From IMG/VR virus record IMGVR_UViG_2690316345_000022: a stretch of 30,122 nt of DNA; one strand, 5' to 3'. The translations under genes and the position numbers were made by a program. Below, piece after piece: positions 277-30,122 of the stretch (positions within the stretch are counted from its first letter, which is position 1; every line of letters starts with the position of its first letter). This DNA is from a virus (taxonomy: Duplodnaviria > Heunggongvirae > Uroviricota > Caudoviricetes). The notes beneath the pieces were generated by a model, which was not told the origin of the DNA, made no database searches, and worked only from the letters and a program-made list of their open reading frames with translations.

Positions 277-2551
277 AGCCTCCGGGCGTTTTGTCCCTCC
301 GTCAGCATTTGCTGCAGGCACCGGTAAGGCGTTTACCGGTGTTTATGCATGGAACGCGCCACGCGAGGCTGTCGGGCGCGAAAGACCCCTTACACGTGAC
401 GAGATGCGTCAGGTGCAAGGTGTTTTATCCACGATTAACCGCCTGCCTTACTTTTTGCGCTCGCTGTTTACTTCACGCTATGACTACATCCGTCGCAATA
501 AAAGCCCGGTGCACGGGTTTTATTTCCTCACATCCACTTTTCAGCGTCGTTTATGGCCGCGCATTGAGCGTGTGAATCAGCGCCATGAAATGAACACCGA
601 CGCGTCGTTACTGTTTCTGGCAGAGCGTGACCACTATGCGCGCCTGCCGGGAATGAATGACAAGGAGCTGAAAAAGTTTGCCGCCCGTATCTCATCGCAG
701 CTTTTCATGATGTATGAGGAACTCTGCGATGCATGGGTTGATGCGCATGGTGAAAAAGAATCGCTGTTTACGGATGAGGCGCAGGCTCACCTGTATGGTC
801 ATGTTGCTGGCGCTGCACGTGCTTTCAATATTTCCCCGCTCTACTGGAAAAAATACCGTAAAGGACAGATGACCACGAGGCAGGCATATTCTGCCATTGC
901 CCGCCTGTTTAACGATGAGTGGTGGACTCATCAGCTTAAAGGCCAGCGTATGCGCTGGCATGAGGCGTTACTGATTGCTGTCGGGGAGGTCAATAAAGAC
1001 CGTTCTCCTTATGCCAGTAAACATGCCATTCGTGATGTGCGTGCGCGCCGCCAGGCAAATCTGGAATTTCTTAAATCGTGTGACCTCGAAAACAGGGAAA
1101 CCGGCGAACGCATCGACCTTATCAGTAAGGTGATGGGCAGTATTTCTAATCCTGAAATTCGCCGGATGGAGCTGATGAACACCATTGCCGGTATTGAGCG
1201 TTACGCCGCCGCAGAGGGTGATGTGGGGATGTTTATCACGCTGACCGCGCCGTCAAAGTATCACCCGACACGTCAGGTCGGAAAAGGCGAAAGTAAAACC
1301 GTTCAGCTTAATCACGGCTGGAACGATGAGGCATTTAATCCAAAGGATGCGCAGCGTTATCTCTGCCGTATCTGGAGCCTGATGCGCACGGCATTCAAGG
1401 ATAATGATTTACAGGTCTACGGTTTGCGAGTCGTCGAGCCACACCACGACGGAACGCCGCACTGGCATATGATGCTTTTTTGTAATCCACGCCAGCGTAA
1501 CCAGATTATCGAAATCATGCGTCGCTACGCGCTCAAAGAGGATGGCGACGAAAGAGGAGCTGCGCGAAACCGTTTTCAGGCAAAACACCTTAACCGGGGT
1601 GGTGCTGCGGGGTATATCGCTAAATACATCTCAAAAAATATCGACGGCTATGCACTGGATGGTCAGCTCAATAACGATACCGGCAGGCCGCTTAAAGACA
1701 CTGCCGCGGCTGTTACCGCATGGGCGTCAACGTGGCGCATTCCGCAATTTAAAACGGTTGGACTGCCGACAATGGGGGCTTACCGTGAACTACGCAAATT
1801 GCCTCGCGGCGTCAGCATAGCTGATGAGTTTGACGAACGCGTCGAGGCTGCACGCGCTGCCGCAGACAGTGGCGATTTTGCGCTGTATATCAGCGCGCAG
1901 GGTGGGGCAAATGTCCCGCGCGATTGTCAGACTGTCAGGGTCGCCCGTAGCCCGTCGGATGACGTTAACGAGTACGAGGAAGAGGTCGAGAGAGTGGTCG
2001 GTATTTACGCGCCGCATCTCGGCGCGCGTCATATTCATATCACCAGAACCACGGACTGGCGCATTGTGCCGAAAGTGCCGGTCGTTGAGCCTTTGACTTT
2101 AAAAAGCGGCATCGCCGCGCCTCGGAGTCCTGTCAATAACTGTGGAAAGCTCACCGGTGGTGATACTTCGTTACCGGCTCCCACACCTTCTGAACACGCC
2201 GCAGCAGTGCTTAATCTGGTTGATGACGGTGTTATCGAATGGAATGACCCGGAGGTCGTGAGGGCGCTCAGGGGCGCATTAAAACACGACCTGAGAACAC
2301 CAAACCGTCAGCAAAGAAACGGAAGCCCGTTAAAACCACATGAAATTGCACCATCGGCCAGACTGACCCGGTCGGAACGAATGCAAATTACCCGTATCCG
2401 CGTTGACCTTGCTCAGAACGGTATCAGGCCGCAGCGATGGGAGCTTGAGGCGCTGGCGCGTGGCGCGACCGTAAATTACGACGGGAAAAAATTCACGTAT
2501 CCGGTCGCTGATGAGTGGCCGGGATTCTCAACAGTAATGGAGTGGACATGA
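266..2551 (+). CDS. A: Replication initiation protein gpA (rolling-circle nicking endonuclease)
   Basis: ORF 224..2551; internal ATG at 266 gives MAVKASGRFVPP..., 761 aa, the P2 gpA length; the longer TTG/ATG extension in the track is probably not used. Confidence 0.92.
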   Translation: MAVKASGRFVPPSAFAAGTGKAFTGVYAWNAPREAVGRERPLTRDEMRQVQGVLSTINRLPYFLRSLFTSRYDYIRRNKSPVHGFYFLTSTFQRRLWPRIERVNQRHEMNTDASLLFLAERDHYARLPGMNDKELKKFAARISSQLFMMYEELCDAWVDAHGEKESLFTDEAQAHLYGHVAGAARAFNISPLYWKKYRKGQMTTRQAYSAIARLFNDEWWTHQLKGQRMRWHEALLIAVGEVNKDRSPYASKHAIRDVRARRQANLEFLKSCDLENRETGERIDLISKVMGSISNPEIRRMELMNTIAGIERYAAAEGDVGMFITLTAPSKYHPTRQVGKGESKTVQLNHGWNDEAFNPKDAQRYLCRIWSLMRTAFKDNDLQVYGLRVVEPHHDGTPHWHMMLFCNPRQRNQIIEIMRRYALKEDGDERGAARNRFQAKHLNRGGAAGYIAKYISKNIDGYALDGQLNNDTGRPLKDTAAAVTAWASTWRIPQFKTVGLPTMGAYRELRKLPRGVSIADEFDERVEAARAAADSGDFALYISAQGGANVPRDCQTVRVARSPSDDVNEYEEEVERVVGIYAPHLGARHIHITRTTDWRIVPKVPVVEPLTLKSGIAAPRSPVNNCGKLTGGDTSLPAPTPSEHAAAVLNLVDDGVIEWNDPEVVRALRGALKHDLRTPNRQQRNGSPLKPHEIAPSARLTRSERMQITRIRVDLAQNGIRPQRWELEALARGATVNYDGKKFTYPVADEWPGFSTVMEWT

Positions 2552-3003
2552 TGGCAAAAATTCACGAGGTAAAGCTGCACGCAAAATATTTCGACCTTGT
2601 ACTGGAAGGAAAGAAACGCGCAGAGTTTCGGAAAAATGACCGTAATTATGAGCGTGGGGACACGTTGATTTTGCATGAATGGGGGCAGGGTGTGTATACG
2701 GGGCGAAAGGTTGAAGCCCGGATAACAGATGTTACTGACCTGTCAGACTGGCTGGAAGATTATGTCTTGCTAAGTATTGATCTGCTTAATACAGGCGCAT
2801 ATGAGATTGTGAACTGGAAAGAACTTAGTGAGCGTGGGCTGGTATTCAGAATTAATCATGAAATTATGCATCAGCTCGGCCTTGCTGTTATGTATGAACC
2901 AGAGACAGGGATGTCTGGCGGGGCAATGGTTGCCACGGATGGAGCATGGAACTATTCAGATGAACAGATGGAGCGTGCACAGCAAAACGGGTGGCTTGGA
3001 TAA
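2548..3003 (+). CDS. ASCH/PUA-like (DUF3850-like) domain protein
   Basis: ORF 2515..3003; likely start MMAKIHEVKLHAKYFDLVLEGKKRAEFRKNDRNYERGDTLILHEW, which resembles the ASCH/DUF3850 N-terminal signature; overlaps A stop (translational coupling). Confidence 0.6.
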   Translation: MMAKIHEVKLHAKYFDLVLEGKKRAEFRKNDRNYERGDTLILHEWGQGVYTGRKVEARITDVTDLSDWLEDYVLLSIDLLNTGAYEIVNWKELSERGLVFRINHEIMHQLGLAVMYEPETGMSGGAMVATDGAWNYSDEQMERAQQNGWLG

Positions 3004-3209
3004 TGCACAGAATACCAGGCGAGATACCGCAGCATAAAACTAAAAATATCAAGCTGATGGCTATTGTTCAGCGTTTACAGCGGATTATGGTCAACGAAAA
3101 TTTGACGCCCGATGAGCTGGTCGGGTGTGCCGAAATAGTCCGGGATAATTACGGGCGGTTTAACCATATCGGTAAGTCCAGAGTTACGCCACCACCACGC
3201 AGACGATAG
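2991..3209 (+). CDS. Hypothetical small protein
   Basis: ORF track only (72 aa); no recognisable motifs; overlaps end of preceding ORF by 13 nt. Confidence 0.3.
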   Translation: MAWIMHRIPGEIPQHKTKNIKLMAIVQRLQRIMVNENLTPDELVGCAEIVRDNYGRFNHIGKSRVTPPPRRR

Positions 3210-3259
3210 AGAACGCCGCCAGTCATGAAACTTGTTTTCAGGGCTGACGGCGTTGAACA

Positions 3260-3588
3260 ACGAGCGAAGCGAGGCGTTAGTTATGACTATGATGGATTTA
3301 TTATATAAAATACATATGGTTATGTTATTTGGGTTACTTCGGTACTTTGTAAATAATTTGGGTTAATGATGATAAGAATTAAGAATATTAGTAGCATGGT
3401 ATTGAGAGTATTATGTTGTGAACATAAAAGAGTGTATTTGCAGAAAAGCATCAGCTCACTTGGGGTAAAGTTATGCGTACATAAGGTGCAGGAGTTACAT
3501 TCGAAGCACATTCTTATCATTTGCTAAAACGCTCGAGATTTTTGGAAGATGCCGTTATACTCTATCGGAGGATAAATCGGAGACAAAA
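3260..3588. promoter_or_regulatory. Strongly AT-rich non-coding leader upstream of the methyltransferase gene; likely promoter region and left boundary of acquired cargo
   Basis: Abrupt drop in GC after 3210 (long A/T tracts such as ttatataaaatacatatggttatgttattt); GGAG-like RBS (tcggagg) about 25 nt upstream of the ATG at 3589. Confidence 0.35.
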
Positions 3589-4626
3589 ATGGCTGTAAAA
3601 GTTGTTGATCTTTTTTGTGGTGCTGGCGGTCTTACACATGGCCTAAGACAGGCCGGATTAAATGTAGTCGCTGGTATTGATATAGAGAGTGCATGCAGGG
3701 TTGCTTATGAAAGCAATAATAGTGCGCTTTTTATTGAAAAAGATATTTCTCTGGTAACCAAAGACGAGCTTGAAGGTCTATTTGAAGGGGCACAAGTTAA
3801 GGTATTGGCGGGATGTGCACCGTGCCAACCCTTTTCTAGGTATACGCAGGGGCGTGATAAGAAAAATGACAAAAAATGGCCTCTTCTTTACGAATTTGAA
3901 CGTTTAATTCGGGATGTTAATCCAGAGATTGTGACAATGGAAAATGTTCCTGATGTGACGAAGCATTCAGTTTACAGTGATTTCTATAATAGCTTAGAGT
4001 CATTAGGCTATTATGTTTGGGCAGGGACAGTTGAATGTGTAGATTATGGCATTCCACAAAATAGAGTAAGGCATGTATTATTAGCATCTAAATTTGCACC
4101 ACTTTCCTTTGTAAGACCAAAAGTACAAAAAACGGTAACGGTGAAAGAATGCATTGGTGGATTACCTCCATTAGAGGCAGGCCAGACGGATCCAGTTGAC
4201 CCTTTACATAAAGCAAGTAAATTAAGTGACATTAATCTTAAACGTATTGCTTGTTCAAAGCCTGGTGGAACGTGGCGAGATTGGCCGATAGAGTTGGTTG
4301 CGTCATGCCATATAAAGAAAAGTGGGCAAGGTTATGCCAGTGTCTATGGTCGTATGGACTGGGATAAACCAAGTCCTACCATCACCACGCTGTGTTATGG
4401 TTTTGGGAATGGCAGATTTGGCCACCCAGAGCAGAATCGTGCAATTTCTTTGAGAGAGGCAGCCCTGTTACAAACCTTTCCAAGTGATTACATTTTTACT
4501 GCACCTAATGAGAAGATCTCTGTGAAGAACGTTGGCAGGATGATCGGTAATGCCGTGCCGGTAAAATTAGGGAAGGTTATAGGTGAGTCAATTATAACCC
4601 ACCTAAAAGAGAATAATATAATTTAA
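3589..4626 (+). CDS. DNA (cytosine-5)-methyltransferase
   Basis: 345 aa with canonical C5-MTase motifs: I DLFCGAGG, IV GCAPCQPFS (catalytic Cys), VI ENVPDV, VIII QNRVR, X GNAVPVKLG. Target specificity unknown. Confidence 0.9.
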   Translation: MAVKVVDLFCGAGGLTHGLRQAGLNVVAGIDIESACRVAYESNNSALFIEKDISLVTKDELEGLFEGAQVKVLAGCAPCQPFSRYTQGRDKKNDKKWPLLYEFERLIRDVNPEIVTMENVPDVTKHSVYSDFYNSLESLGYYVWAGTVECVDYGIPQNRVRHVLLASKFAPLSFVRPKVQKTVTVKECIGGLPPLEAGQTDPVDPLHKASKLSDINLKRIACSKPGGTWRDWPIELVASCHIKKSGQGYASVYGRMDWDKPSPTITTLCYGFGNGRFGHPEQNRAISLREAALLQTFPSDYIFTAPNEKISVKNVGRMIGNAVPVKLGKVIGESIITHLKENNII

Positions 4627-5354
4627 GCCTGTAAACTTGATGATCGTATGTATAAGCGATCATCAAGATATTTTTGTATATTTTCTAGGATTTCTTCGAG
4701 GTAATAAAACACTTCATTTTTAAGAAGTTCAAGATTATCAATGGAAGTATCTTGGCCCTTGTTCAGAAAGGATTCTGAGCCATGCGCTAAAGCATTTCTG
4801 GCATTTTTTATATTTACTAAATTTCCACCATTATGAGTTTTTAAGCGATTTGTTTGAGAGGAAAATCCATATATATTAGCTACATCTCTAATTTTCTGTG
4901 CATCTACATTTCCAGAAAAAAGAGGGTTTTTATCTGCTTTGACTTGTTTTTTATGCTCCTCTAACCATTTTTTTAATACTAGTTTTGCAACATCGCCTTG
5001 TGAAAAATCCATGTCACTAACCATATGATGATCTAATTTTTTTAAGGCAAGTTTTGTTAAGCTTTCACATATCTTATCAATGCAAAGATCATTACATGAA
5101 TTGAGTTCGTCATGTATATCTTCAATAGCATTAGATATAGTGGCTTCTATTAGGTTATACAATATAATAAACGCATTTGCTTTAAGTATATGCGTCATTT
5201 CGATATCAATGTTACGAAGTTTGTACTCATCAGAATCACGATCTTTATAAGAGAATGATGGCCTCTCATCAATAATGAATTTAACAAAATCAAAATATTT
5301 TTCTATATCTTCTTTTCTTTCAGAGAATAATATTTTGCTGTTCATGGTGACCAC
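4623..5354 (-). CDS. HEPN-like domain protein (predicted nuclease), downstream partner of the DUF262 gene
   Basis: 243-aa ORF; predicted GTG start 6 nt after the DUF262 stop with GAGGAG RBS overlapping that stop; C-terminal ARNALAHG matches the HEPN Rx4-6H motif; very AT-rich. Confidence 0.6.
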   Translation of the reverse strand: MVTMNSKILFSERKEDIEKYFDFVKFIIDERPSFSYKDRDSDEYKLRNIDIEMTHILKANAFIILYNLIEATISNAIEDIHDELNSCNDLCIDKICESLTKLALKKLDHHMVSDMDFSQGDVAKLVLKKWLEEHKKQVKADKNPLFSGNVDAQKIRDVANIYGFSSQTNRLKTHNGGNLVNIKNARNALAHGSESFLNKGQDTSIDNLELLKNEVFYYLEEILENIQKYLDDRLYIRSSSLQA

Positions 5355-5360
5355 GGATAA

Positions 5361-6485
5361 TTACTCCTCACTGTCATCTTGAACAGTATCTTGAGTCTGT
5401 ACACCTAAAAGTTTATCTCTTACATATTCAATTCGTGCTTTAACTTTAGGTTTTGAGTTCGAGGCATCAGATCTAGTATGTTTAATGAACTCTACAGAGT
5501 TAAGCCATTCAGTTACTGGGGCTGGTGTTATGCTTGGATTAGTTTGTAAGGCTAAAGTTGAACCAACAGCCAGTGCTTCAAAACGTATTCTTGGTACAGT
5601 ATTTGCCGTTTCGTTTTTTCTGAAACCATAGGGGAAATTCTGTTTTACAAATCTGCACATATCTTGAAATTGTTTAGCTAATTTGTTTTCTTGTTCAGCG
5701 GAAAATGTATTATTTCTATTATCAAGATATTGAGTTAGGAATGTGTCAACACTTTTTTCAAAGTGGAGATAGTTATCACAATATGCGAAATATCTAAGAA
5801 CTAATTCAGGATATTCTCCTCGATTGATTCGAGCATCGTTTAGGGGACATATTTCTCTAAACAATGGAAGTTCAGACAGACTATTAATGAAATCCAGGAA
5901 AGGACCATCATTGCTGCCTTGTCGCTGCTCCATTGTTGTAAGTCTTATTCCGCCTGTATTTAATCTATCGAAAATCTCTCTCCTTGCTTCTTCATCACAT
6001 AATTCAGTGAGTTCAATCATTCTAATAGTTTTCCTGTCGAATCTAAGCTTACGCGCAGGTGTGAAGTCAGAGTATTTGAATCCGTTAGCTGAAGTTAGTT
6101 TTTTTAATCCAGTAAGAGTAAATTTATCATTTAGGAAATGATAAAGTGTTCTAATCCTCTGGCTGCCATCAACGATTTCCAATCGTCCATCGTCATTTCC
6201 GATATCGGCGACAAATACATATGGAATAGGAATGTTTAGTAAAAGCGATTCAATGAATCTTGATTTTTGTATATTGTTCCAAACAAACTCCCTTTGATAG
6301 TCAGGAATATATAGCTCAGCTTGATCGGTTTCTAATCCTTTCTGAAACTTGTCAACAATAACACTAACAGGAAATTCTCTGATTTGGTGATCGGTTATTT
6401 TTTGCATGGATTTGATCTGGCTATCCAGTTCAATTTTATCTTCTTCTGTGATCACTTGTTCAGGCTGTCTTGGGACTCTTGCCAT
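5361..6485 (-). CDS. DUF262 / ParB-like (GmrSD N-terminal-type) domain protein
   Basis: ORF 5361..6512; likely ATG at 6485 (MARVPRQPEQ...) preceded by AAGGAG RBS; contains IVDGSQRIRTL, a variant of the DGQQR motif of DUF262; no obvious DUF1524/HNH motif seen by eye. Confidence 0.75.
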   Translation of the reverse strand: MARVPRQPEQVITEEDKIELDSQIKSMQKITDHQIREFPVSVIVDKFQKGLETDQAELYIPDYQREFVWNNIQKSRFIESLLLNIPIPYVFVADIGNDDGRLEIVDGSQRIRTLYHFLNDKFTLTGLKKLTSANGFKYSDFTPARKLRFDRKTIRMIELTELCDEEARREIFDRLNTGGIRLTTMEQRQGSNDGPFLDFINSLSELPLFREICPLNDARINRGEYPELVLRYFAYCDNYLHFEKSVDTFLTQYLDNRNNTFSAEQENKLAKQFQDMCRFVKQNFPYGFRKNETANTVPRIRFEALAVGSTLALQTNPSITPAPVTEWLNSVEFIKHTRSDASNSKPKVKARIEYVRDKLLGVQTQDTVQDDSEE

Positions 6486-6628
6486 GTGGTTTCTCCTTAT
6501 GCTTATTTGCAATAAGTTGCATTAGTTTGCATGTGTAATTTTATACTGATTTAATCCCACAAACTCTTTACATGCAAGGGGTTGAAGCTTAAATGCAACT
6601 GCATTAAAACCGTCCCATGAAGCGGGCG

Positions 6629-6647
6629 GGCGAGGCGGGGAAAGCAC
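6629..6647. other. cos: cos site (19-nt cohesive-end sequence of P2-type phages)
   Basis: Exact string GGCGAGGCGGGGAAAGCAC, recalled as the P2 cohesive end, lies between the accessory cargo and the 3' end of Q, the expected position. Confidence 0.7.
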
Positions 6648-6789
6648 TGCGCGCTGGCGGTGGTGCTGATTTTATTTTTTCAGCGTCTGAGCGCGTCGTG
6701 ATGGCGTTTAGATTGTTCGCCGGGGGCGTTGGTGTGTATGCGGGCTGTTTTGCGCGGTGGTGAGCGTGTGAGGGCGTGATGACGGGGTG

Positions 6790-6813
6790 TAAAAAAGCCG
6801 CCCGCAGGCGGCG
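6790..6813 (-). terminator. Rho-independent terminator downstream of Q (minus strand)
   Basis: On the minus strand, directly after the Q stop: GCCGCC-TGCG-GGCGGC hairpin followed by TTTTTTA. Confidence 0.6.
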
Positions 6814-6817
6814 ATGT

Positions 6818-7852
6818 TCAGCCGTTGTCAGTGTCCAGTGAGTAGTTTTTAAAGCGGATGACCTCCTGACCGAGCCAGCCGTTTATTTCCCGAATCCTGT
6901 CCTGTAGCGGGATAAGCTCATTGCGGACAAAGACCTTTGCCACTTTCTCAATATCGCCCAGCGACCCGACGTTCTCCGGCTTGCCGCCCATCAACTGAAA
7001 GGGGATGCGGTGCGCGTCCAGCAGGTCAGCGGCGCTGGCTTTTTTGATATTAAAAAAATCGTCCTTCGTCGCCACTTCACTGAGGGGGATAATTTTAATG
7101 CCGTCGGCTTTCCCCTGCGGGGCATAGAGAAACAGATTTTTAAAGTTGTTGCGGCCTTTCGACTTCACCATGTTTTCGCGGAGCATTTCGATATCGTTGC
7201 GATCCTGCACGGCATCGGTGACGTACATGATGTATCCGGCATGTGCGCCGTTTTCGTAATACTTGCGGCGGAACAGCGTGGCCGACTCATTCAGCCAGGC
7301 AGAGTTAAGGGCGCTGAGATATTCCGGCAGGCCGTACAGCTCCTGATTAATATCCGGCTCCAGCAGGTGAAACACGGAGCCGGGCGCGAAAGGTGTCGGC
7401 TCATGGAAGGACGGCACCCACCAGTAAACATCCTCTTCCACGCCACGGCGGGTATATTTTGCCGGTGAGGTTTCCAGTCTGATGACCTTACCGGTGGTGC
7501 TGTAACGCTTTTCCAGAAACGCATTACCGAACACCAGAAAATCCAGCACAAAGCGGCTGAAATCCTGCTGAGAAAGCCACGGGTGTGGGATAAACGTTGA
7601 GGCCAGAATATTACGTTTGACGTAAATCGGTGAGCTGTGATGCACGGCAGCACGCAGGCTTTTTGCCAGACCGGTAAAGCTGACCGGTGGCTCATACCAT
7701 CTGCCGTTACTGATGCACTCGACGTAATCCAGAATGTCACGGCGGTCGAGTACCGGCACCGGCTCACCAAAGGTGAATGCCTCCATTTTCGGGGCGCTGG
7801 CGGTCATTTTTTTTGCCGCAGGTTGCGGTGTTTTCCCTTTTTTCTTGCTCAT
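6818..7852 (-). CDS. Q: Portal protein gpQ
   Basis: 344 aa, the P2 gpQ length; start overlaps P stop (ATGA). Confidence 0.93.
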   Translation of the reverse strand: MSKKKGKTPQPAAKKMTASAPKMEAFTFGEPVPVLDRRDILDYVECISNGRWYEPPVSFTGLAKSLRAAVHHSSPIYVKRNILASTFIPHPWLSQQDFSRFVLDFLVFGNAFLEKRYSTTGKVIRLETSPAKYTRRGVEEDVYWWVPSFHEPTPFAPGSVFHLLEPDINQELYGLPEYLSALNSAWLNESATLFRRKYYENGAHAGYIMYVTDAVQDRNDIEMLRENMVKSKGRNNFKNLFLYAPQGKADGIKIIPLSEVATKDDFFNIKKASAADLLDAHRIPFQLMGGKPENVGSLGDIEKVAKVFVRNELIPLQDRIREINGWLGQEVIRFKNYSLDTDNG

Positions 7853-9624
7853 CAGTAAAACTCCAGAATGGTGGATGTCAGCGGGGTGCTGATACCGGCG
7901 GTGAGTGGCTCATTTAACAGGGCGTGCATGGTCGCCCAGGCGAGGTCGGCGTGGCTGGCTTCCTCGCTGCGGCTGGCCTCATAGGTGGCGCTGCGTCCGC
8001 TGCTGGTCATGGTCTTGCGGATAGCCATAAACGAGCTGGTGATGTCGGTGGCGCTGACGTCATATTCCAGACAGCCACGGCGGATAACGTCTTTTGCCTT
8101 GAGCACCATTGCAGTTTTCATTTCCGGCGTGTAGCGGATATCGCGCGCGGCGGGATAGAACGAGCGCACGAGCTGGAACACGCCGACACCGAGGCCGGTG
8201 GCATCAATACCGATGTATTCAACGTTATATTTTTCGGTGAGTTTGCGGATGGATTCAGCCTGGGTGGCAAAGTCCATGCCTTTCCACTGGTGACGCTCAA
8301 GTATTCTGAATTTGCCACCGGCCACCACCGGCGGTGCCAGTACCACGCATCCGGCGCTGTCTCCACGGTGTGACGGGTCGTAACCAATCCATACCGGACG
8401 TGAGCCGAACGGATTGGCGGCAAACGGCGCATAGTCTTCCCATTCTTCCAGCGTGTCGACCATGCAGCGTTGCAGCTCCTCGAACGGGAACACCGATGCC
8501 TTGTCGTCAACAAATTCACACATGAACAGGTTTTTAAAATCGTCGGCGCTGTTTTCGCGTTTGAGCTGCTCAATGTCGAACAGCGTGCAGCCGCCTTTCA
8601 GGGCGTCCTCAATGGTGACAATCTGTCGCCACTGGCCGTCCGCACAGAGAAGCCCACCGGCAAGGGCGTTATGACTGACGTCGATTTCCACACGTTCGGC
8701 GGCGCTGGCGCGTCCCCGGTTAAACAGTTCACCCGACCAGAACGGGTAGGCGTCGTGCGCCAGCGTGGACGGGGTGGAGAAATAGGTCGAACGCAGGTGA
8801 CTCTGTGAGGCCATACCTGATGCCACCTTACGCAGTACCTGAAAATTCGGGATCCAGAAAATCTCGTCGACGTACAGGTCGCCGTTATGGCTCTGCGCGG
8901 TGTTGGAGTTGGTGCCGAGAAAAATCAGTTTTGCGCCGTTATTGCCCAGGACAATCGGGTCACCGGTCAGGTCAACGTCAACCAGCCGGGCAAAGGCGAT
9001 GATGTATTCGCGGAACACATACGCCTGCGTTTTACTGGCCGACAGAAAAATCTGGTTATGACCGGTTTTCAGGGCGCGCAGCAGCGCCTCGCGGGAAAAA
9101 TAAAACGTCGCGCCAATCTGGCGGGATTTCAGGATATCGCGGATGCGGTGCTCAAGCCCGGCGCGATACCAGTGCAACTGATATTCGAAAGACTGCTCAA
9201 AGAAAATCTGCTCCAGCTTTTCGATGGCCTCGTCACTGAAAAAATTCTTTTTCGGTTTGCGACGCCCGCCTTTGTTGCGGTTAGCGACGTTCGGATTAAG
9301 GTCTGCCTCGTTGCCGGTCTGACTGTAACGGTTGACCCGTGCCAGCCGTTCAATCTGGCGTCCGAGCAGGTCAATTTCCTTGAAGTCACCGCCGGTTTTC
9401 TGCGGTTTGATGATGAGCTGGGTCAGCCGCGCTTCCAGACTCATTTCGACACGGCTGATGGGGGCAACGCTGTCCCAGCCGTCGCGCTGTTTCCAGCTCT
9501 GCACCGTCGGGCGTTTCATCTGCAACATGGCGGCAATCTGCGGCACGGAAAACCCCTGCCAGTACAGCAGCGCCGCCTGACGACGCGGGTCGTGTAAAAG
9601 AGTGGTGTCTGTGGTGATGGTCAT
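7852..9624 (-). CDS. P: Terminase large (ATPase) subunit gpP
   Basis: ORF 7852..9654; internal ATG at 9624 (MTITTDTTLL...) gives 590 aa as in P2 gpP; GAGG RBS upstream. Confidence 0.92.
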   Translation of the reverse strand: MTITTDTTLLHDPRRQAALLYWQGFSVPQIAAMLQMKRPTVQSWKQRDGWDSVAPISRVEMSLEARLTQLIIKPQKTGGDFKEIDLLGRQIERLARVNRYSQTGNEADLNPNVANRNKGGRRKPKKNFFSDEAIEKLEQIFFEQSFEYQLHWYRAGLEHRIRDILKSRQIGATFYFSREALLRALKTGHNQIFLSASKTQAYVFREYIIAFARLVDVDLTGDPIVLGNNGAKLIFLGTNSNTAQSHNGDLYVDEIFWIPNFQVLRKVASGMASQSHLRSTYFSTPSTLAHDAYPFWSGELFNRGRASAAERVEIDVSHNALAGGLLCADGQWRQIVTIEDALKGGCTLFDIEQLKRENSADDFKNLFMCEFVDDKASVFPFEELQRCMVDTLEEWEDYAPFAANPFGSRPVWIGYDPSHRGDSAGCVVLAPPVVAGGKFRILERHQWKGMDFATQAESIRKLTEKYNVEYIGIDATGLGVGVFQLVRSFYPAARDIRYTPEMKTAMVLKAKDVIRRGCLEYDVSATDITSSFMAIRKTMTSSGRSATYEASRSEEASHADLAWATMHALLNEPLTAGISTPLTSTILEFY

Positions 9625-9797
9625 GAATACCTCGCCGTGATGAATACACGGCAAGGCTACTGAGTCGCGCCCCGCGATTCGCTAAGGTGCTGTTGTGTCA
9701 GTGATAAGCCATCCGGGACTGATGGCGGAGGATGCGCATCGTCGGGAAACTGATGCCGACATGTGACTCCTCTAATCACTATTCAGGACTCCTGACA
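9625..9797. promoter_or_regulatory. Divergent late-promoter region between P (leftward) and O (rightward)
   Basis: Intergenic position between divergent late operons as in P2 (Ogr-dependent PP/PO); specific -10/-35 or activator sites not confidently identified by eye. Confidence 0.4.
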
Positions 9798-20710: not shown

Positions 20711-21238
20711 ATGCAGCATTTGATAAATATAACGGCAGGTAATCCAAAAACGGTTGAACAATATCAATTGACAAAGGACTTTGATGTTGTCTGGTTTTTT
20801 TCAGAAGATGGTAAGAACTGGTACGAAGAACAAAAGTATTTTGCTGATGACACGATAAAAATAGCGTACGACAAAGATAATATTATCCGCTATGTGGAAA
20901 AGGATGTGACAGCTATCAGACCAGATGGATTAAGTGTTGTTGAAGTGCCGGATATTACTGCTAATCGACGGGCGGACATTTCAGGGAACTGGATGTTTAA
21001 GGATGGTACAGTGATTAAACGAATTTATACGGCAGAGGAATTGCAGCAGCAGGCAGAAAATCGGAAAGCCAGACTTCTTGCAGATGCTGAATCCGTGATT
21101 TTGCCGCTGGAGCGCGCGGTCAGACTGAACATGGCAACAGATGAGGAGCGTAGCCGACTGGAAGCATGGGAACGCTACAGCGTTCTGGTCAGTCGTGTGG
21201 ATCCTGCAAATCCTGAATGGCCGGAAATGCCGCAATAA
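20711..21238 (+). CDS. G: Tail fibre assembly chaperone gpG
   Basis: 175 aa directly after H; position as P2 gpG. Confidence 0.85.
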
Positions 21239-21459: not shown

Positions 21460-22053
21460 ATGTTTACTAAGCGACGATTAAAAAATATTAACTGGGAGGC
21501 AAGTTCAGTGATTCTTGCTATGGTTCTCTTTGTTGGAAATATATTTTATACAAATCATCGTGATGATATAAGCATGGAGGCTGAGAGGGACAGTATCAGA
21601 ACAATGTTTGCATATGAAATCGCTAATAACCATCGCGCTCTCACTTTTCTTGATAAAACGAGACATATTGGCTTTGACGAAAATTCGGAGCATTTTGTTG
21701 GCGAGCCTTTTGCCATTAATGTCAAATCATTAGGGGGGCCTCGCTTACAGATTGCATTAAACCAGACTGATAAAGTGTTTAAATCCTACTTCAGCGAATT
21801 AAGTAAGCTTGATAAAGAGGATGTTACTCTTCTTATGGACTATTACCATGAGCAAAGCATCCTGCTGGAGCGTGTAAAATCTACGTTACAGAAGATGAAA
21901 AGTGGTAATGATATTAAAGTTGATATTGATGGTTACTTATTAGAAGAACACTTCATGAATGAGCTTAATCTTTCTAATATTTTGCTTAAACGCTATAGCC
22001 ATTTGTTGTCACAATACGCTAAAGAACATAAAACAAAAGATTTACATAATTGA
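21460..22053 (+). CDS. Hypothetical membrane-anchored protein in the G-FI accessory slot (P2 Z/fun position)
   Basis: 197-aa ORF in an AT-rich island; N-terminus MFTKRRLKNINWEASSVILAMVLFVGNIFY is a basic stretch followed by a hydrophobic helix; AAGG RBS upstream; no recognisable catalytic motifs. Confidence 0.6.
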   Translation: MFTKRRLKNINWEASSVILAMVLFVGNIFYTNHRDDISMEAERDSIRTMFAYEIANNHRALTFLDKTRHIGFDENSEHFVGEPFAINVKSLGGPRLQIALNQTDKVFKSYFSELSKLDKEDVTLLMDYYHEQSILLERVKSTLQKMKSGNDIKVDIDGYLLEEHFMNELNLSNILLKRYSHLLSQYAKEHKTKDLHN

Positions 22054-27042: not shown

Positions 27043-27522
27043 ATGATGCTCGCGTTAGGTATGTTTGTTTTTAGGCGCCAGACGCTGCCACACCAGACCA
27101 TGCAGCGTGAATCAGATTATCGCTGGCCGTCAAATTCCCGTATCGGTAAACGGGATGCCTTTCAGTTTCTCGGTGTGGGTGAGGAAAACATCACACTTGC
27201 CGGCGTGCTTTATCCCGAACTGACCGGCGGGAAGCTGACGATGACCACGCTCAGGCTGATGGCAGAGGAAGGCCGGGCGTGGCCGTTGCTGGATGGCACC
27301 GGCATGATTTACGGCATGTATGTCATCAGCAAGGTGAGTGAAACAGGGAGTATTTTCTTTGCAGATGGCACACCCCGAAAAATTGATTTTACGCTGTCGC
27401 TCACCCGCGTTGATGAATCACTGGCCGCGCTTTATGGCGATATCGGTAAACAGGCGGAATCGCTCATCGGTAAGGCTGGCAGTATGGCGACTAAATTCAC
27501 GGGTATGACGGGGGCGGGATAA
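27043..27522 (+). CDS. U: Tail protein gpU
   Basis: 159 aa; as in P2. Confidence 0.9.
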   Translation: MMLALGMFVFRRQTLPHQTMQRESDYRWPSNSRIGKRDAFQFLGVGEENITLAGVLYPELTGGKLTMTTLRLMAEEGRAWPLLDGTGMIYGMYVISKVSETGSIFFADGTPRKIDFTLSLTRVDESLAALYGDIGKQAESLIGKAGSMATKFTGMTGAG

Positions 27523-28684
27523 TGCTGGATGCGCTGACATTTGATGCAGGCAGTACGCTGACGCCGGATTACATGCTGATGCTCGACAGCAGGGATATTA
27601 CCGGCAATATCAGCGACCGTCTGATGAACATGACCCTGACGGATAACCGGGGCTTTGAGGCTGACCAGCTTGATATTGAACTGAACGATGCCGACGGGCA
27701 GGTCGGGCTGCCGGTTCGTGGCGCTGTCCTGACGGTGTATATCGGCTGGAAAGGTTTTGCCCTGGTATGCAAAGGGAAATTTACCGTTGATGAGGTTGAA
27801 CACCGGGGCGCACCGGATGTGGTCACCATCCGCGCCCGGAGTGCAGATTTTCGCGGGACGCTCAATTCCCGCCGTGAAGGCTCCTGGCATGACACCACGC
27901 TCGGTGCGATTGTTGAGGCGATAGCCTCCCGTAACAGGCTGGAAGCCAGTGTCGTTCCATCACTGGCCGGAATTAAAATCCCGCACATCGACCAGTCGCA
28001 GGAGTCTGATGCAAAATTCCTGACCCGCCTTGCTGAACGCAACGGCGGTGAGGTGTCGGTAAAAATGGGAAAACTGTTGTTTCTCAAGCGGGGCAGGGGG
28101 TGACGGCCAGCGGTAAAAAAGTCCCGCAGGTCACCATAACCCGCAGCGACGGCGACCGCCATCATTTTGCGATTGCTGACCGTGGAGCCTATACCGGCGT
28201 AACGGCAAAGTGGTTACACACCAAAGACCCGAAGCCGCAAAAGCAGAAGGTAAAACTGAAACGCAAAAAGAAAGAGAAACACCTGCGCGCACTGGAGCAC
28301 CCGAAAGCGAAACCAGTCACGCAGAAGAAAGCGCCAAAAGTACCGGAAGCGCGCGAAGGTGAATACATGGCCGGTGAGGCTGACAACGTTTTTGCACTGA
28401 CCACGGTATATGCCACGAAAGCACAGGCCATGCGCGCCGCTCAGGCGAAGTGGGATAAACTGCAACGGGGTGTGGCGGAGTTCTCCATCAGCCTGGCTAC
28501 CGGTCGGGCAGATATTTACACGGAAACACCGGTTAAAGTGTCAGGCTTTAAGCGCGTCATAGACGAGCAGGACTGGACAATCACTAAGGTGACACATTTT
28601 CTGAATAATAGCGGCTTCACGACGTCCTTAGAGCTTGAGGTCAGGCTTTCTGATGTGGAGTACGAAACCGAAGATGATGAGTGA
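27522..28684 (+). pseudogene. D: Tail protein gene D interrupted by an apparent 1-bp deletion (-1 frameshift near 28088); possible sequencing error
   Basis: Two abutting ORFs (27522..28103, 193 aa; 28100..28684, 194 aa) total the expected 387 aa of gpD; the second frame is open upstream and reads ...AGQGVTASGKK across the break. Confidence 0.6.
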
Positions 28685-28765
28685 TGTTTTTATTTTATCT
28701 ATTTGTTTTATAAGGATAAATTAACTAAAATGGCACCATCAACAAAACCGGAAGAGGTGCTCGCG

Positions 28766-28984
28766 ATGTTTCATTGTCCTTTATGCCAGCATGCCGCACA
28801 TGCGCGTACAAGCCGCTATATCACTGACACGACAAAAGAGCGTTATCACCAGTGTCAGAACGTGAATTGCAGCGCCACGTTCATCACTTATGAGTCGGTA
28901 CAGCGATACATCGTGAAGCCGGGAGAAGTCCACGCCGTAAGGCCGCACCCGTTACCATCAGGACAGCAAATTATGTGGATGTGA
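28766..28984 (+). CDS. ogr: Late gene transcriptional activator Ogr (zinc-finger)
   Basis: ORF 28703..28984; ATG at 28766 gives 72 aa MFHCPLCQHAAHARTSRYITDTTKERYHQCQNVNC... with the C-x2-C...C-x4-C zinc motif of Ogr/Delta. Confidence 0.9.
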   Translation: MFHCPLCQHAAHARTSRYITDTTKERYHQCQNVNCSATFITYESVQRYIVKPGEVHAVRPHPLPSGQQIMWM

Positions 28985-28994
28985 TCACAAAAAT

Positions 28995-29020
28995 AGCCCC
29001 TCAGTTGAGGGGCTTATTTA
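28995..29020 (+). terminator. Rho-independent terminator after ogr
   Basis: AGCCCCTCA-GT-TGAGGGGCT hairpin followed by TTATTTA; flanked by A-run on the other side (could act bidirectionally). Confidence 0.6.
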
Positions 29021-29110
29021 TGGTCGATGTGGACGCTATGTGGACAGTGCTTGATATAAATCCATTTATATCATCAGGTTAGGTGCTTTTTTGTGACACC
29101 ATCCCTGTCT
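29021..29110. other. attR: Probable attR junction region (prophage/host boundary); exact core not determinable without attL
   Basis: Lies between ogr, the last phage gene before attP in P2, and host-like sequence; contains a perfect 10-bp inverted repeat at 29052-29073. Confidence 0.4.
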
Positions 29111-29111
29111 T

Positions 29112-29138
29112 CCCCCACATGATGTGGGGGTTTTTTTT
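29112..29138 (+). terminator. Host rho-independent terminator upstream of fieF, resembling the cpxP 3'UTR / CpxQ sRNA terminator
   Basis: CCCCCACATGATGTGGGGG stem-loop followed by TTTTTTTT; preceding GACACCATCCCTGTCTTCCCCCACAT resembles my recollection of CpxQ. Confidence 0.5.
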
Positions 29139-29219
29139 ATCCTCAATTTGCCTGCTGCTTAATGCATTGCAGATGATTTGCTTCCGTTATACTAGCGTCA
29201 GTTGATAGCGGGAGTATTT

Positions 29220-30122
29220 ATGAATCAATCTTATGGACGGCTGGTCAGTCGGGCGGCGATTGCTGCGACGGCGATGGCTTCGCTGCTATTGCTGATTAAA
29301 ATTTTTGCATGGTGGTATACCGGGTCGGTGAGTATTCTCGCCGCGCTGGTGGATTCGCTGGTGGATATCGGCGCGTCGTTGACGAATTTATTGGTGGTGC
29401 GATATTCCCTGCAACCTGCCGACGATAATCACTCGTTTGGTCACGGTAAAGCTGAGTCCCTCGCGGCGCTGGCGCAAAGTATGTTTATCTCCGGTTCGGC
29501 ACTATTCCTGTTTTTGACGGGTATTCAACATCTGATATCTCCAACACCGATGACAGATCCAGGCGTCGGGGTTATCGTGACAATTGTGGCGCTAATTTGT
29601 ACGATTATCCTTGTCTCGTTTCAGCGTTGGGTGGTGCGGCGGACGCAAAGCCAGGCGGTGCGGGCTGATATGCTACATTACCAGTCTGATGTTATGATGA
29701 ACGGCGCAATTCTGCTGGCGCTGGGGTTGTCCTGGTACGGCTGGCATCGCGCCGATGCTCTGTTTGCATTGGGAATCGGCATCTATATTTTATATAGCGC
29801 GTTACGCATGGGATATGAGGCGGTACAGTCATTACTGGATCGCGCATTGCCTGATGAGGAACGGCAAGAAATTATTGATATCGTGACTTCCTGGCCGGGT
29901 GTTAGCGGCGCTCACGATCTTCGCACGCGGCAGTCAGGGCCGACCCGCTTTATTCAGATTCATTTGGAAATGGAAGACTCTCTGCCTTTGGTTCAGGCAC
30001 ATATGGTGGCGGATCAGGTAGAGCAGGCTATTTTACGGCGTTTTCCGGGATCGGATGTAATTATCCATCAGGACCCCTGTTCCGTCGTACCCAGGGAGGG
30101 TAAACGGTCTATGCTTTCATAA
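29220..30122 (+). CDS. fieF: Cation diffusion facilitator family ferrous-iron/zinc efflux transporter FieF (YiiP), host chromosomal gene
   Basis: ORF 29202..30122; ATG at 29220 gives 300 aa [53 protein letters not shown]..., matching E. coli FieF from memory; six TM helices plus C-terminal cytoplasmic domain. Confidence 0.93.

Follow-up and report, generated by a model that had tools for sequence, protein, structure and literature searches.

What does a DNA methyltransferase contribute to a prophage when no restriction enzyme is encoded beside it? The question is raised by a C5-cytosine DNA methyltransferase (MTase) gene at positions 3589-4626 of a 30,122-nucleotide viral sequence (IMG/VR record IMGVR_UViG_2690316345_000022). 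This whole stretch, referred to here as the window, is a P2-like prophage, and the only neighbors of the MTase gene are a DUF262 gene and a HEPN gene, as the initial annotation had stated (Pfam matches at 5361-6485 and 4623-5354, respectively). That annotation offered two options: the MTase could be an orphan, anti-restriction enzyme, or it could be the self-protection component of a restriction-like module formed with the DUF262-HEPN pair. Our analysis indicates that it probably supplies the modification function of a conserved three-gene system that combines restriction-modification (R-M) with abortive infection and resides as a moron in a P2 defense hotspot.

The MTase gene lies on the + strand, starts with ATG and encodes 345 aa, with a catalytic cysteine at residue 79, a target recognition domain (TRD) at approximately residues 166-283 and a predicted specificity of MT(5mC)GAK (5mC, 5-methylcytosine). 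Its product matched Pfam PF00145 with an E-value of 1.2e-55 and 189.6 bits (cutoff 22), covering model positions 2-323 of 324, and TIGR00675 (dcm) with 130.1 bits (cutoff 100.65). Every catalytic motif previously quoted was located, namely FCGAGG (motif I, FxGxG; residues 9-14, 3613-3630), PCQ with the nucleophilic cysteine (motif IV; residues 78-80, 3820-3828), ENV (motif VI; residues 118-120, 3940-3948), QNRVR (motif VIII, QxRxR; residues 157-161, 4057-4071) and GNAVPV (motif X, GNAVP; residues 320-325, 4546-4563), and each was at least 95% conserved among 64 orthologues. Both family matches and motifs I, IV, VI, VIII and X are those of a full-length C5-MTase, and the open reading frame (ORF) is best explained as encoding an active enzyme. 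The description of the MTase as compact does not distinguish it, 345 aa being normal for a monospecific C5-MTase. Database searches returned no informatively named homologue, and the relatives in the PDB were generic C5-MTases and DNMT1 only. The PADLOC model for DrmMII was rejected as an identity for the MTase, as it represents a related family that scores approximately 290-310 bits for MTases of all the classes described below.

The HEPN gene (4623-5354, - strand) encodes a nuclease of the MAE_28990/RiboL-PSP type. The ORF begins at GTG 5354, although the likely start is ATG 5345, giving 240 aa. An above-threshold match to Pfam MAE_28990 (E = 3.9e-20), a further match to PF18735, the R-x4-6-H motif (here R-x4-H, RNALAH, 4782-4799) and a HEPN fold place the product in the MAE_28990 family of the HEPN superfamily. 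Its structure model resembles HEPN RNase toxins, and the protein is most likely an RNase; it had zero PADLOC 2.0 matches even at E ≤ 10. The DUF262 gene (5361-6485, - strand; ATG 6485, preceded by AAGGAG) encodes a 374-aa protein that joins a DUF262 domain (GmrSD_N; ParB-like NTPase) to a C-terminal helical domain. This protein matched Pfam PF03235 (E = 2.3e-28) and phrog_2598, and its motifs YQREFVW (6279-6299), DGSQR (6156-6170) and FDRLNTGG (5949-5972) are invariant among orthologues. In its AlphaFold2 model the C-terminal half is all-helical, and the top PDB match was BrxU (7P9K), followed by ParB/Noc CTPases. The best PADLOC match was NsnA (3.7e-55), and PD-T4-2_A (PDLC04027) was also matched (2.4e-34, 117 bits). 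A Pfam search revealed no DUF1524 domain in the DUF262 protein.

None of the cassette ORFs contained a restriction endonuclease (REase) domain according to the ORF list and the Pfam and PADLOC profile searches, which bears out the earlier remark that no cognate endonuclease is recognizable; the REase gene beside the MTase that marks a classical Type II R-M system is thus missing from the window. The stop codons of the MTase and HEPN genes overlap on opposite strands, sharing the TTAA at 4623-4626. A terminator-like hairpin (4636-4667, + strand) lies just 3' of the MTase stop, within the 3' end of the convergent HEPN gene.

Linkage of the three genes and exchange of partners

A search anchored on DUF262 was performed in contigs from one genome per species and returned 80 loci at 45-70% identity, 75 of them with enough flanking sequence for gene order to be read. 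The 80 loci fall in approximately 10 phyla and include Gamma-, Beta- and Alphaproteobacteria, Bacteroidota, Acidobacteriota, Planctomycetota, Verrucomicrobiota, Cyanobacteria, Armatimonadota and one bacterium of the candidate phyla radiation. A HEPN gene followed DUF262 in essentially all of them, and an orthologue of the window MTase (E-values of 1e-100 to 1e-196) directly adjoined the pair in 67 of the 75. These 67 triads occur in three gene orders: 40 are convergent as in the window, 25 read MTase, DUF262, HEPN, and two read DUF262, HEPN, MTase. Of 115 convergent loci, 77 have MTase and HEPN genes with overlapping 3' ends. The three proteins had correlated distance matrices (Mantel r of 0.80, 0.65 and 0.62, with 0 of 2000 permutations as high), which shows co-inheritance, not necessarily physical interaction. 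Plasmids of Rhodococcus (Actinomycetota) and Phaeobacter (Alphaproteobacteria) carry distant clades, with approximately 38% DUF262 identity, that retain the order DUF262, HEPN, MTase with overlapping genes. The triad is frequent on plasmids and prophages, and in two loci DUF262 was split with the MTase intact.

The triad is a real and conserved system that has already been catalogued and has validated analogues. The initial annotation held that such a module would be an unusual R-M architecture, which needs correction: Anantharaman et al. (2013) noted in silico that MAE_28990 HEPN genes share an operon with genes for a ParB-like protein and for a DNA methylase, a family description that the triad matches, and Rousset et al. 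(2022) listed the exact gene set in their P2-hotspot table, a DUF262 and HEPN_MAE_28990 set being filed under 'Type-IV restriction' in the supplementary tables. A validated analogue, PD-lambda-5, is discussed below.

A reverse search anchored on the MTase yielded 160 loci from metagenomes and viral contigs. The pair stood beside the MTase in 58 of 74 informative viral loci and in approximately half of the informative metagenome loci. Elsewhere, the MTase adjoined an approximately 660-aa protein with an N-terminal GHKL ATPase (PADLOC REase_II, 1e-96), DrmD, or a three-gene module, often with a Vsr mismatch nickase between the MTase and the alternative partner. The pairing with the GHKL protein was also found in haloarchaea and Campylobacter. 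The three-gene module lies downstream of the MTase in four loci (L091, L096, L213 and L226) as a convergent trio encoding proteins of approximately 220, 400-430 and 730 aa; the largest has two GHKL ATPase domains, and the other two had no Pfam or PADLOC match.

The MTase itself differs little between these settings. Mean identity across contexts was 55-58%, versus 57% within the triad class, and reached 86-87% across classes. Triad MTases have 45 TRD positions with at least 90% conservation, and at 44 of these the DISARM class and the GHKL class each show the identical residue; conservation of the TRD equals or exceeds that of the catalytic core. Composite loci attest to turnover of the partner, one type holding a GHKL REase with a split DUF262, HEPN, MTase and Vsr, and another c8-c7 with the triad. 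This is the pattern expected of an 'M' gene with interchangeable 'R' modules. Because another restriction partner nearly always adjoins a pair-less MTase, such MTases would rarely be true orphans, and with the linkage in 67 of 75 loci the orphan or anti-restriction option becomes unlikely.

Eight loci lacked the MTase beside the pair. In six of these, the pair is embedded in a class-1 DISARM system (DrmD, DrmMI, the pair, DrmA, DrmB), the DrmD of which shares 88-96% identity with that of metagenomic loci carrying this MTase, with or without Vsr, immediately upstream. On a Microvirga plasmid (L252), a single contig shows a helix-turn-helix gene, the C5-MTase, Vsr, DrmD, DrmMI, another cassette and DrmA in that order. 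Stitched together, the DrmD identity and the Microvirga layout suggest that a cognate MTase probably lies approximately 7 kb upstream of the pair in the six DISARM-embedded loci; if these are counted, adjacency would rise from 89% to as much as approximately 97%. The slot between DrmMI and DrmA is variable in class-1 DISARM of the Serratia type: the pair fills it in five species (L027, L028, L030, L032 and L075; approximately 5800-7850), and on the Microvirga plasmid an ATP-binding protein and an O-methyltransferase are found there instead. Thus, the Serratia DISARM that has been studied may have relatives with extra embedded effectors, which could confound deletion phenotypes.

The predicted recognition site and the MTase promoter

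We consider it likely that the window MTase recognizes MT(5mC)GAK, based upon published experiments with KcmA and DrmMII, the conservation of the TRD, and promoter sites. In the class-1 DISARM of Serratia sp. SCBI, DrmMII makes 5mC at MTCGAK/YMTCGAKR. The pair-embedding DISARM operons are orthologous to this system (DrmA, 2,488 bits over approximately 1,320 residues), and their DrmB is approximately 85% identical to that of Serratia, as judged by eye over 405 aligned residues. KcmA (M.KpnK2044IV) of Klebsiella pneumoniae NTUH-K2044 made MT(5mC)GAK when cloned in ER2796. It lies two genes from a non-palindromic N6-methyladenine enzyme, as in the layout MTase, DrmD, DrmMI, and the termini derived from its primers (MKKVSCV.../...LVATK) agree with those of the clade members of the DISARM class (VKKISCVDLFCGAGG...). 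Both KcmA and the Serratia DrmMII are probable members of the window MTase clade, KcmA being placed by its gene neighborhood and primer-derived termini only; the KcmA primers matched none of the retrieved loci or viral contigs.

A CTCGAG at 3532-3537 (+ strand), which is an MTCGAK site, overlaps the -35 box of the MTase promoter. The candidate sigma-70 promoter found by consensus scan (3533-3561, + strand) consists of the -35 element TCGAGA, a 17-nt spacer and the -10 element TATACT (3556-3561), followed by the ribosome-binding sequence GGAG. The same geometry recurs within otherwise unrelated upstream sequence of convergent triads, in which the MTase start is preceded at 35-75 nt by an MTCGAK hexamer, itself 17 nt from a clear -10 box. 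Such a -35 site occurred in 76 of the 111 loci with a convergent triad, which cover 20 of 35 clusters (less than 75% MTase identity); among GHKL-REase clusters, 7 of 15 had it. With one representative per MTase cluster, 24 of 35 TCGA cores at the -35 position had the M and K flanks, as did 22 of the 124 cores at other upstream positions (binomial P = 7e-8 against 25%). MTase-first triads and DISARM loci do not have the -35 site, and MTCGAK was not enriched upstream of DUF262, where the DUF262-HEPN promoter lies.

A recognition site within the -35 box of the M gene is a known design in R-M systems that lack a C protein, in which M is expressed first and then throttled. Autoregulation by promoter methylation is known for R-M systems such as CfrBI, which likewise has the MTase recognition site in its own -35 region; in the window, unlike in CfrBI-type systems, the genes are convergent and the site lies in the M promoter only. 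The window promoter thus has the arrangement for M-before-R control, and its position points to a regulatory function of this kind. Since the own-site promoter is common to triads and true R-M loci, the partner of the MTase would be hazardous to unmethylated DNA.

The window contains three MTCGAK sites, versus 25.9 +/- 4.4 in dinucleotide shuffles, with controls of the same core near expectation. Under a third-order Markov model, the phage backbone has 1 site versus 10.1 expected, another P2-like phage 6 versus 13.2, and 100 kb of E. coli chromosome 64 versus 77.6. This depletion lends weak support to the predicted specificity, because P2-like genomes avoid many palindromic hexamers far more, and ATCGAT and CTCGAG rank only 15-32 among the 64 palindromic hexamers in avoidance. 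Several GC-rich palindromes are almost absent from P2-like backbones (in the window, GCCGGC 2 versus 29 expected, CAGCTG 0 versus 21 and GGCGCC 2 versus 23), which is general restriction-site avoidance and stronger than that of MTCGAK.

A proposed mechanism, its alternatives and known relatives

It is hypothesized that DNA of the host and of the prophage receives 5mC from the MTase at a fixed motif, most probably MTCGAK, and that the enzyme regulates itself via the target site in its -35 region, with high expression on unmethylated DNA at establishment that is damped once the DNA is methylated. The DUF262 protein, a ParB-type NTPase with a helical DNA-binding domain that is related to the sensor domain of GmrSD, BrxU and SspE, would read the methylation state of DNA. 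DNA without the mark would license the HEPN protein, most likely acting as an RNase, to halt phage development or kill the cell, and the MTase would prevent self-activation of this effector. In its most specific form, the proposal is of an R-M system with an RNA-acting restriction arm, in which the NTPase reads the 5mC of MTCGAK, unmarked DNA leads through the HEPN RNase to translation arrest or abortive infection, and one mark is common to GHKL REases, DISARM and the DUF262-HEPN pair. We advance this form tentatively, as one possibility. The broader option of a module formed with the pair is clearly favored by the linkage across phyla, the co-variation, the partner swapping and the promoter site; self-protection by the MTase is the conditional part of it, with exceptions among loci in which the MTase is missing or frameshifted.

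Several observations weigh against a modification arm that restrains the pair. Approximately one third of the MTase-anchored loci (41) have no DUF262-HEPN pair. Conversely, two cyanobacterial pairs with intact motifs have no MTase nearby, and a clade of pairs with intact motifs occurs without the MTase on at least six IncF resistance plasmids of E. coli and Salmonella. On these plasmids, IS21/IS66 fragments begin directly after the HEPN stop; an example is the E. coli IncF resistance plasmid NZ_CP137740.1 (L243, 4989-6689), which carries a divergent pair of approximately 39% identity with Tn3/IS21/IS66 flanks and no MTase within 5 kb. The MTase is frameshifted in a C-run in Neisseria weixii (L011, approximately 8070) and in a G-run in phage P24B2 (L255, NC_049387, 1997-3179), with DUF262 and HEPN intact in both; these two homopolymer frameshifts may be sequencing errors or tolerated losses of the MTase. 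Both homopolymers are absent from the window gene, and phase variation of the window MTase was therefore rejected. The window MTase and the pair each have a promoter of their own, and their transcription converges. The PD-T4-2 operon defends without an MTase (Vassallo et al. 2022), class-1 DISARM shows no autoimmunity without its MTases, MTCGAK sites are only approximately 44-67% methylated in vivo, and every characterized DUF262 sensor binds modified, not unmodified, DNA.

The last of these points introduces the chief competing explanation, which reverses the logic in the manner of SspE: DUF262 would bind 5mC on self DNA, the mark would license, position or restrain the NTPase and HEPN proteins, and the MTase would be needed for defense while its loss would not be lethal. 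GmrSD, BrxU and SspE all sense modified DNA, SspE requiring phosphorothioate marks on host DNA, and the viability of loci with a missing or frameshifted MTase, the partial methylation in vivo and the linkage evidence, which it fits as well as it does the reading that we favor, all agree with this scheme. Arguing that unmethylated DNA is instead the danger are the M-first autoregulated promoter common to true R-M loci, and the occurrence of the same MTase, interchangeably, beside a classical REase or DISARM, the latter reportedly acting more strongly on DNA with unmethylated sites; PD-T4-2, moreover, works without any MTase. On balance, we regard the reversed scheme as unlikely.

If instead the MTase and the pair merely share a hotspot, the MTase could be an orphan or anti-restriction enzyme that shields the DNA of P2 and of its host against MTCGAK-specific restriction by GHKL REases and DISARM in the population, and the pair a self-contained system like PD-T4-2 or a type IV enzyme. 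The loci in which either component occurs alone, the separate convergent promoters, the autonomy of PD-T4-2, the filing by Rousset et al. under type IV restriction and the depletion of MTCGAK in P2-like backbones would all suit such independence. Independent genes would not be expected to show 89% adjacency in three gene orders across approximately 10 phyla, to overlap at their stops and to diverge in a correlated manner, nor to include an MTase that nearly always has another restriction partner when the pair is missing, and the MTCGAK depletion is unspecific, many palindromes being more avoided. This makes independence rather improbable, and the MTase as modification arm remains our preferred reading.

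Two experimentally validated systems of Vassallo et al. (2022) are the closest analogues. PD-lambda-5, from a prophage of E. coli ECOR7, was described as 'ParB/HEPN, methyltransferase' and as a compacted 'RM+Abi' system; it gave broad protection, and its cloning required a delta-mrr host because of methylation. Like the window cassette, it is prophage-borne and combines a ParB-like domain, a HEPN-like region and a DNA methyltransferase; unlike it, the ParBc and HEPN parts are fused and the MTase is a Dam-like D12 N6-adenine enzyme, whereas the window has separate genes, a DUF262 sensor and a C5-MTase. Its architecture is analogous only, and no PD-lambda-5 model was among the matches listed (10 PADLOC matches for DUF262 and the best 25 for the MTase). 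PD-T4-2, from ECOR65, is a DUF262 and HEPN operon active against T-even phages in its native strain and in K-12. It shares with the window a DUF262 protein, as seen from the PD-T4-2_A match, and a RiboL-PSP-type HEPN protein, but it has no MTase, the window HEPN protein missed the PD-T4-2_B model at E ≤ 10, and the window DUF262 protein scores higher on NsnA. The window pair was therefore not equated with PD-T4-2, given the missing PD-T4-2_B match and the MTase as an integral neighbor. The literature searched yielded no experimental paper about the triad or about how PD-T4-2 works.

Other relatives share single parts of the cassette. GHKL-ATPase (MORC-like) Type II R-M systems with Vsr, and KcmA, have in common with the window the MTase family, the TRD and the own-site -35 promoter, but the window has no REase-like gene and DUF262 and HEPN fill the R position. 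GmrSD, BrxU and SspE share the DUF262 ParB-type NTPase sensor with its QRxxxW, DGxQR and FxxxN motifs, BrxU being the best structural match, and SspABCD-SspE also couples a DNA-modification module to a DUF262 effector. In the window, however, the nuclease is a separate HEPN protein and no DUF1524/HNH domain is present; the Ssp modification is phosphorothioation, as opposed to 5mC made by a single MTase, and type IV enzymes have no cognate MTase. Identification of the window system as GmrSD or SspE was rejected on account of the missing DUF1524 domain and Ssp genes. An MTase of the window clade heads class-1 DISARM operons orthologous to the Serratia system, in which the pair can be embedded, although the DrmA, DrmB, DrmC and DrmD genes are absent from the window. 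Menshen (NsnABC) provides the best DUF262 match, NsnA, with the same ParB-DUF262 and ParBDB architecture, and approximately 28% of Menshen loci neighbor R-M-type systems or methylases; the window is not Menshen, as the NsnB ABC-ATPase and the NsnC inPIN-nuclease are absent from the cassette.

Should the coupling prove true, this small and easily cloned cassette would be a model for how DUF262/ParB-type NTPase sensors read DNA modification, and for the control of an RNase effector by a self-mark at the DNA level. One MTase clade, probably with one motif (MTCGAK), is suggested to supply the self-mark for at least four effector modules, so that a single methylation 'currency' would serve several immune mechanisms. 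This would explain why its members are annotated as DrmMII, as 'type II MTase' or as 'orphan' according to context, and would aid in interpreting puzzling results with class-1 DISARM methylases. It also leads to predictions of the 5mC motif for prophage MTases of E. coli, Shigella sonnei and Klebsiella, of methylation-sensitive promoter design, and of a cloning host that is deficient in mcrA, mcrBC, mrr and dcm.

The prophage setting

The three genes form a low-GC moron of approximately 3.6 kb (3210-6800) between the gpA/DUF3850 genes and cos/portal Q, with a GC content of 37.7% versus 53.9% in the remaining window. The genes around it are those for the replication endonuclease gpA (224-2551) on one side and, on the other, for portal Q (6818-7852) and the terminase (7852-9654), with capsid and tail genes, ogr and host fieF downstream. 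The cassette therefore occupies P2 defense hotspot #1, the interval between the replication gene and the portal, which houses tin/old and many other defense systems (PMC9519451, PMC9122126). P2-like prophages of E. coli and Shigella carry the same cassette at the same position, and a second allele with 72% MTase identity is found in the same hotspot in many Shigella and E. coli assemblies. Both alleles are rare (4 and 9 among 5,426 complete E. coli genomes). A metagenome contig (OJJG01000063.1, L083) encodes an MTase protein 100% identical to that of the window.

In Shigella and E. coli assemblies, the triad is still intact inside decayed P2 prophage remnants. This would suit a selfish addiction module, in which loss of the cassette dilutes methylation and unleashes HEPN toxicity, so that the prophage or plasmid is stabilized with little anti-phage benefit; the frequency of the triad on plasmids and prophages and its R-M-like regulation point the same way. 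The triad nevertheless sits where validated defense systems cluster, and its analogues PD-T4-2 and PD-lambda-5 protect against phages. Addiction and defense are not mutually exclusive, and we hold addiction as the chief role to be very improbable.

Two ORFs lie between gpA and the cassette, one encoding a DUF3850/ASCH and DUF7415 protein (2515-3003) and the other 72 aa (2991-3209); both are kept in E. coli relatives, and their PHROG families have no assigned function. A second low-GC island (approximately 40% GC) lies at P2 hotspot #2, between the tail-fiber assembly gene G (20711-21238) and the sheath gene FI (from 22383). Its 197-aa ORF (21460-22053) has an N-terminal transmembrane helix and no PADLOC match; it occupies the fun(Z) position as a candidate moron or exclusion gene. 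P2 tail gene D encodes 387 aa in relatives (e.g. L249), and the window has two ORFs in its place (27522-28103 and 28100-28684); this frameshift near 28100 implies either that the prophage is defective or that the assembly contains an indel. The window ends (28703-30122) with ogr and then fieF, a cation-efflux gene of the host; this is the cpxA-fieF integration neighborhood also seen in E. coli and Shigella remnants (L249).

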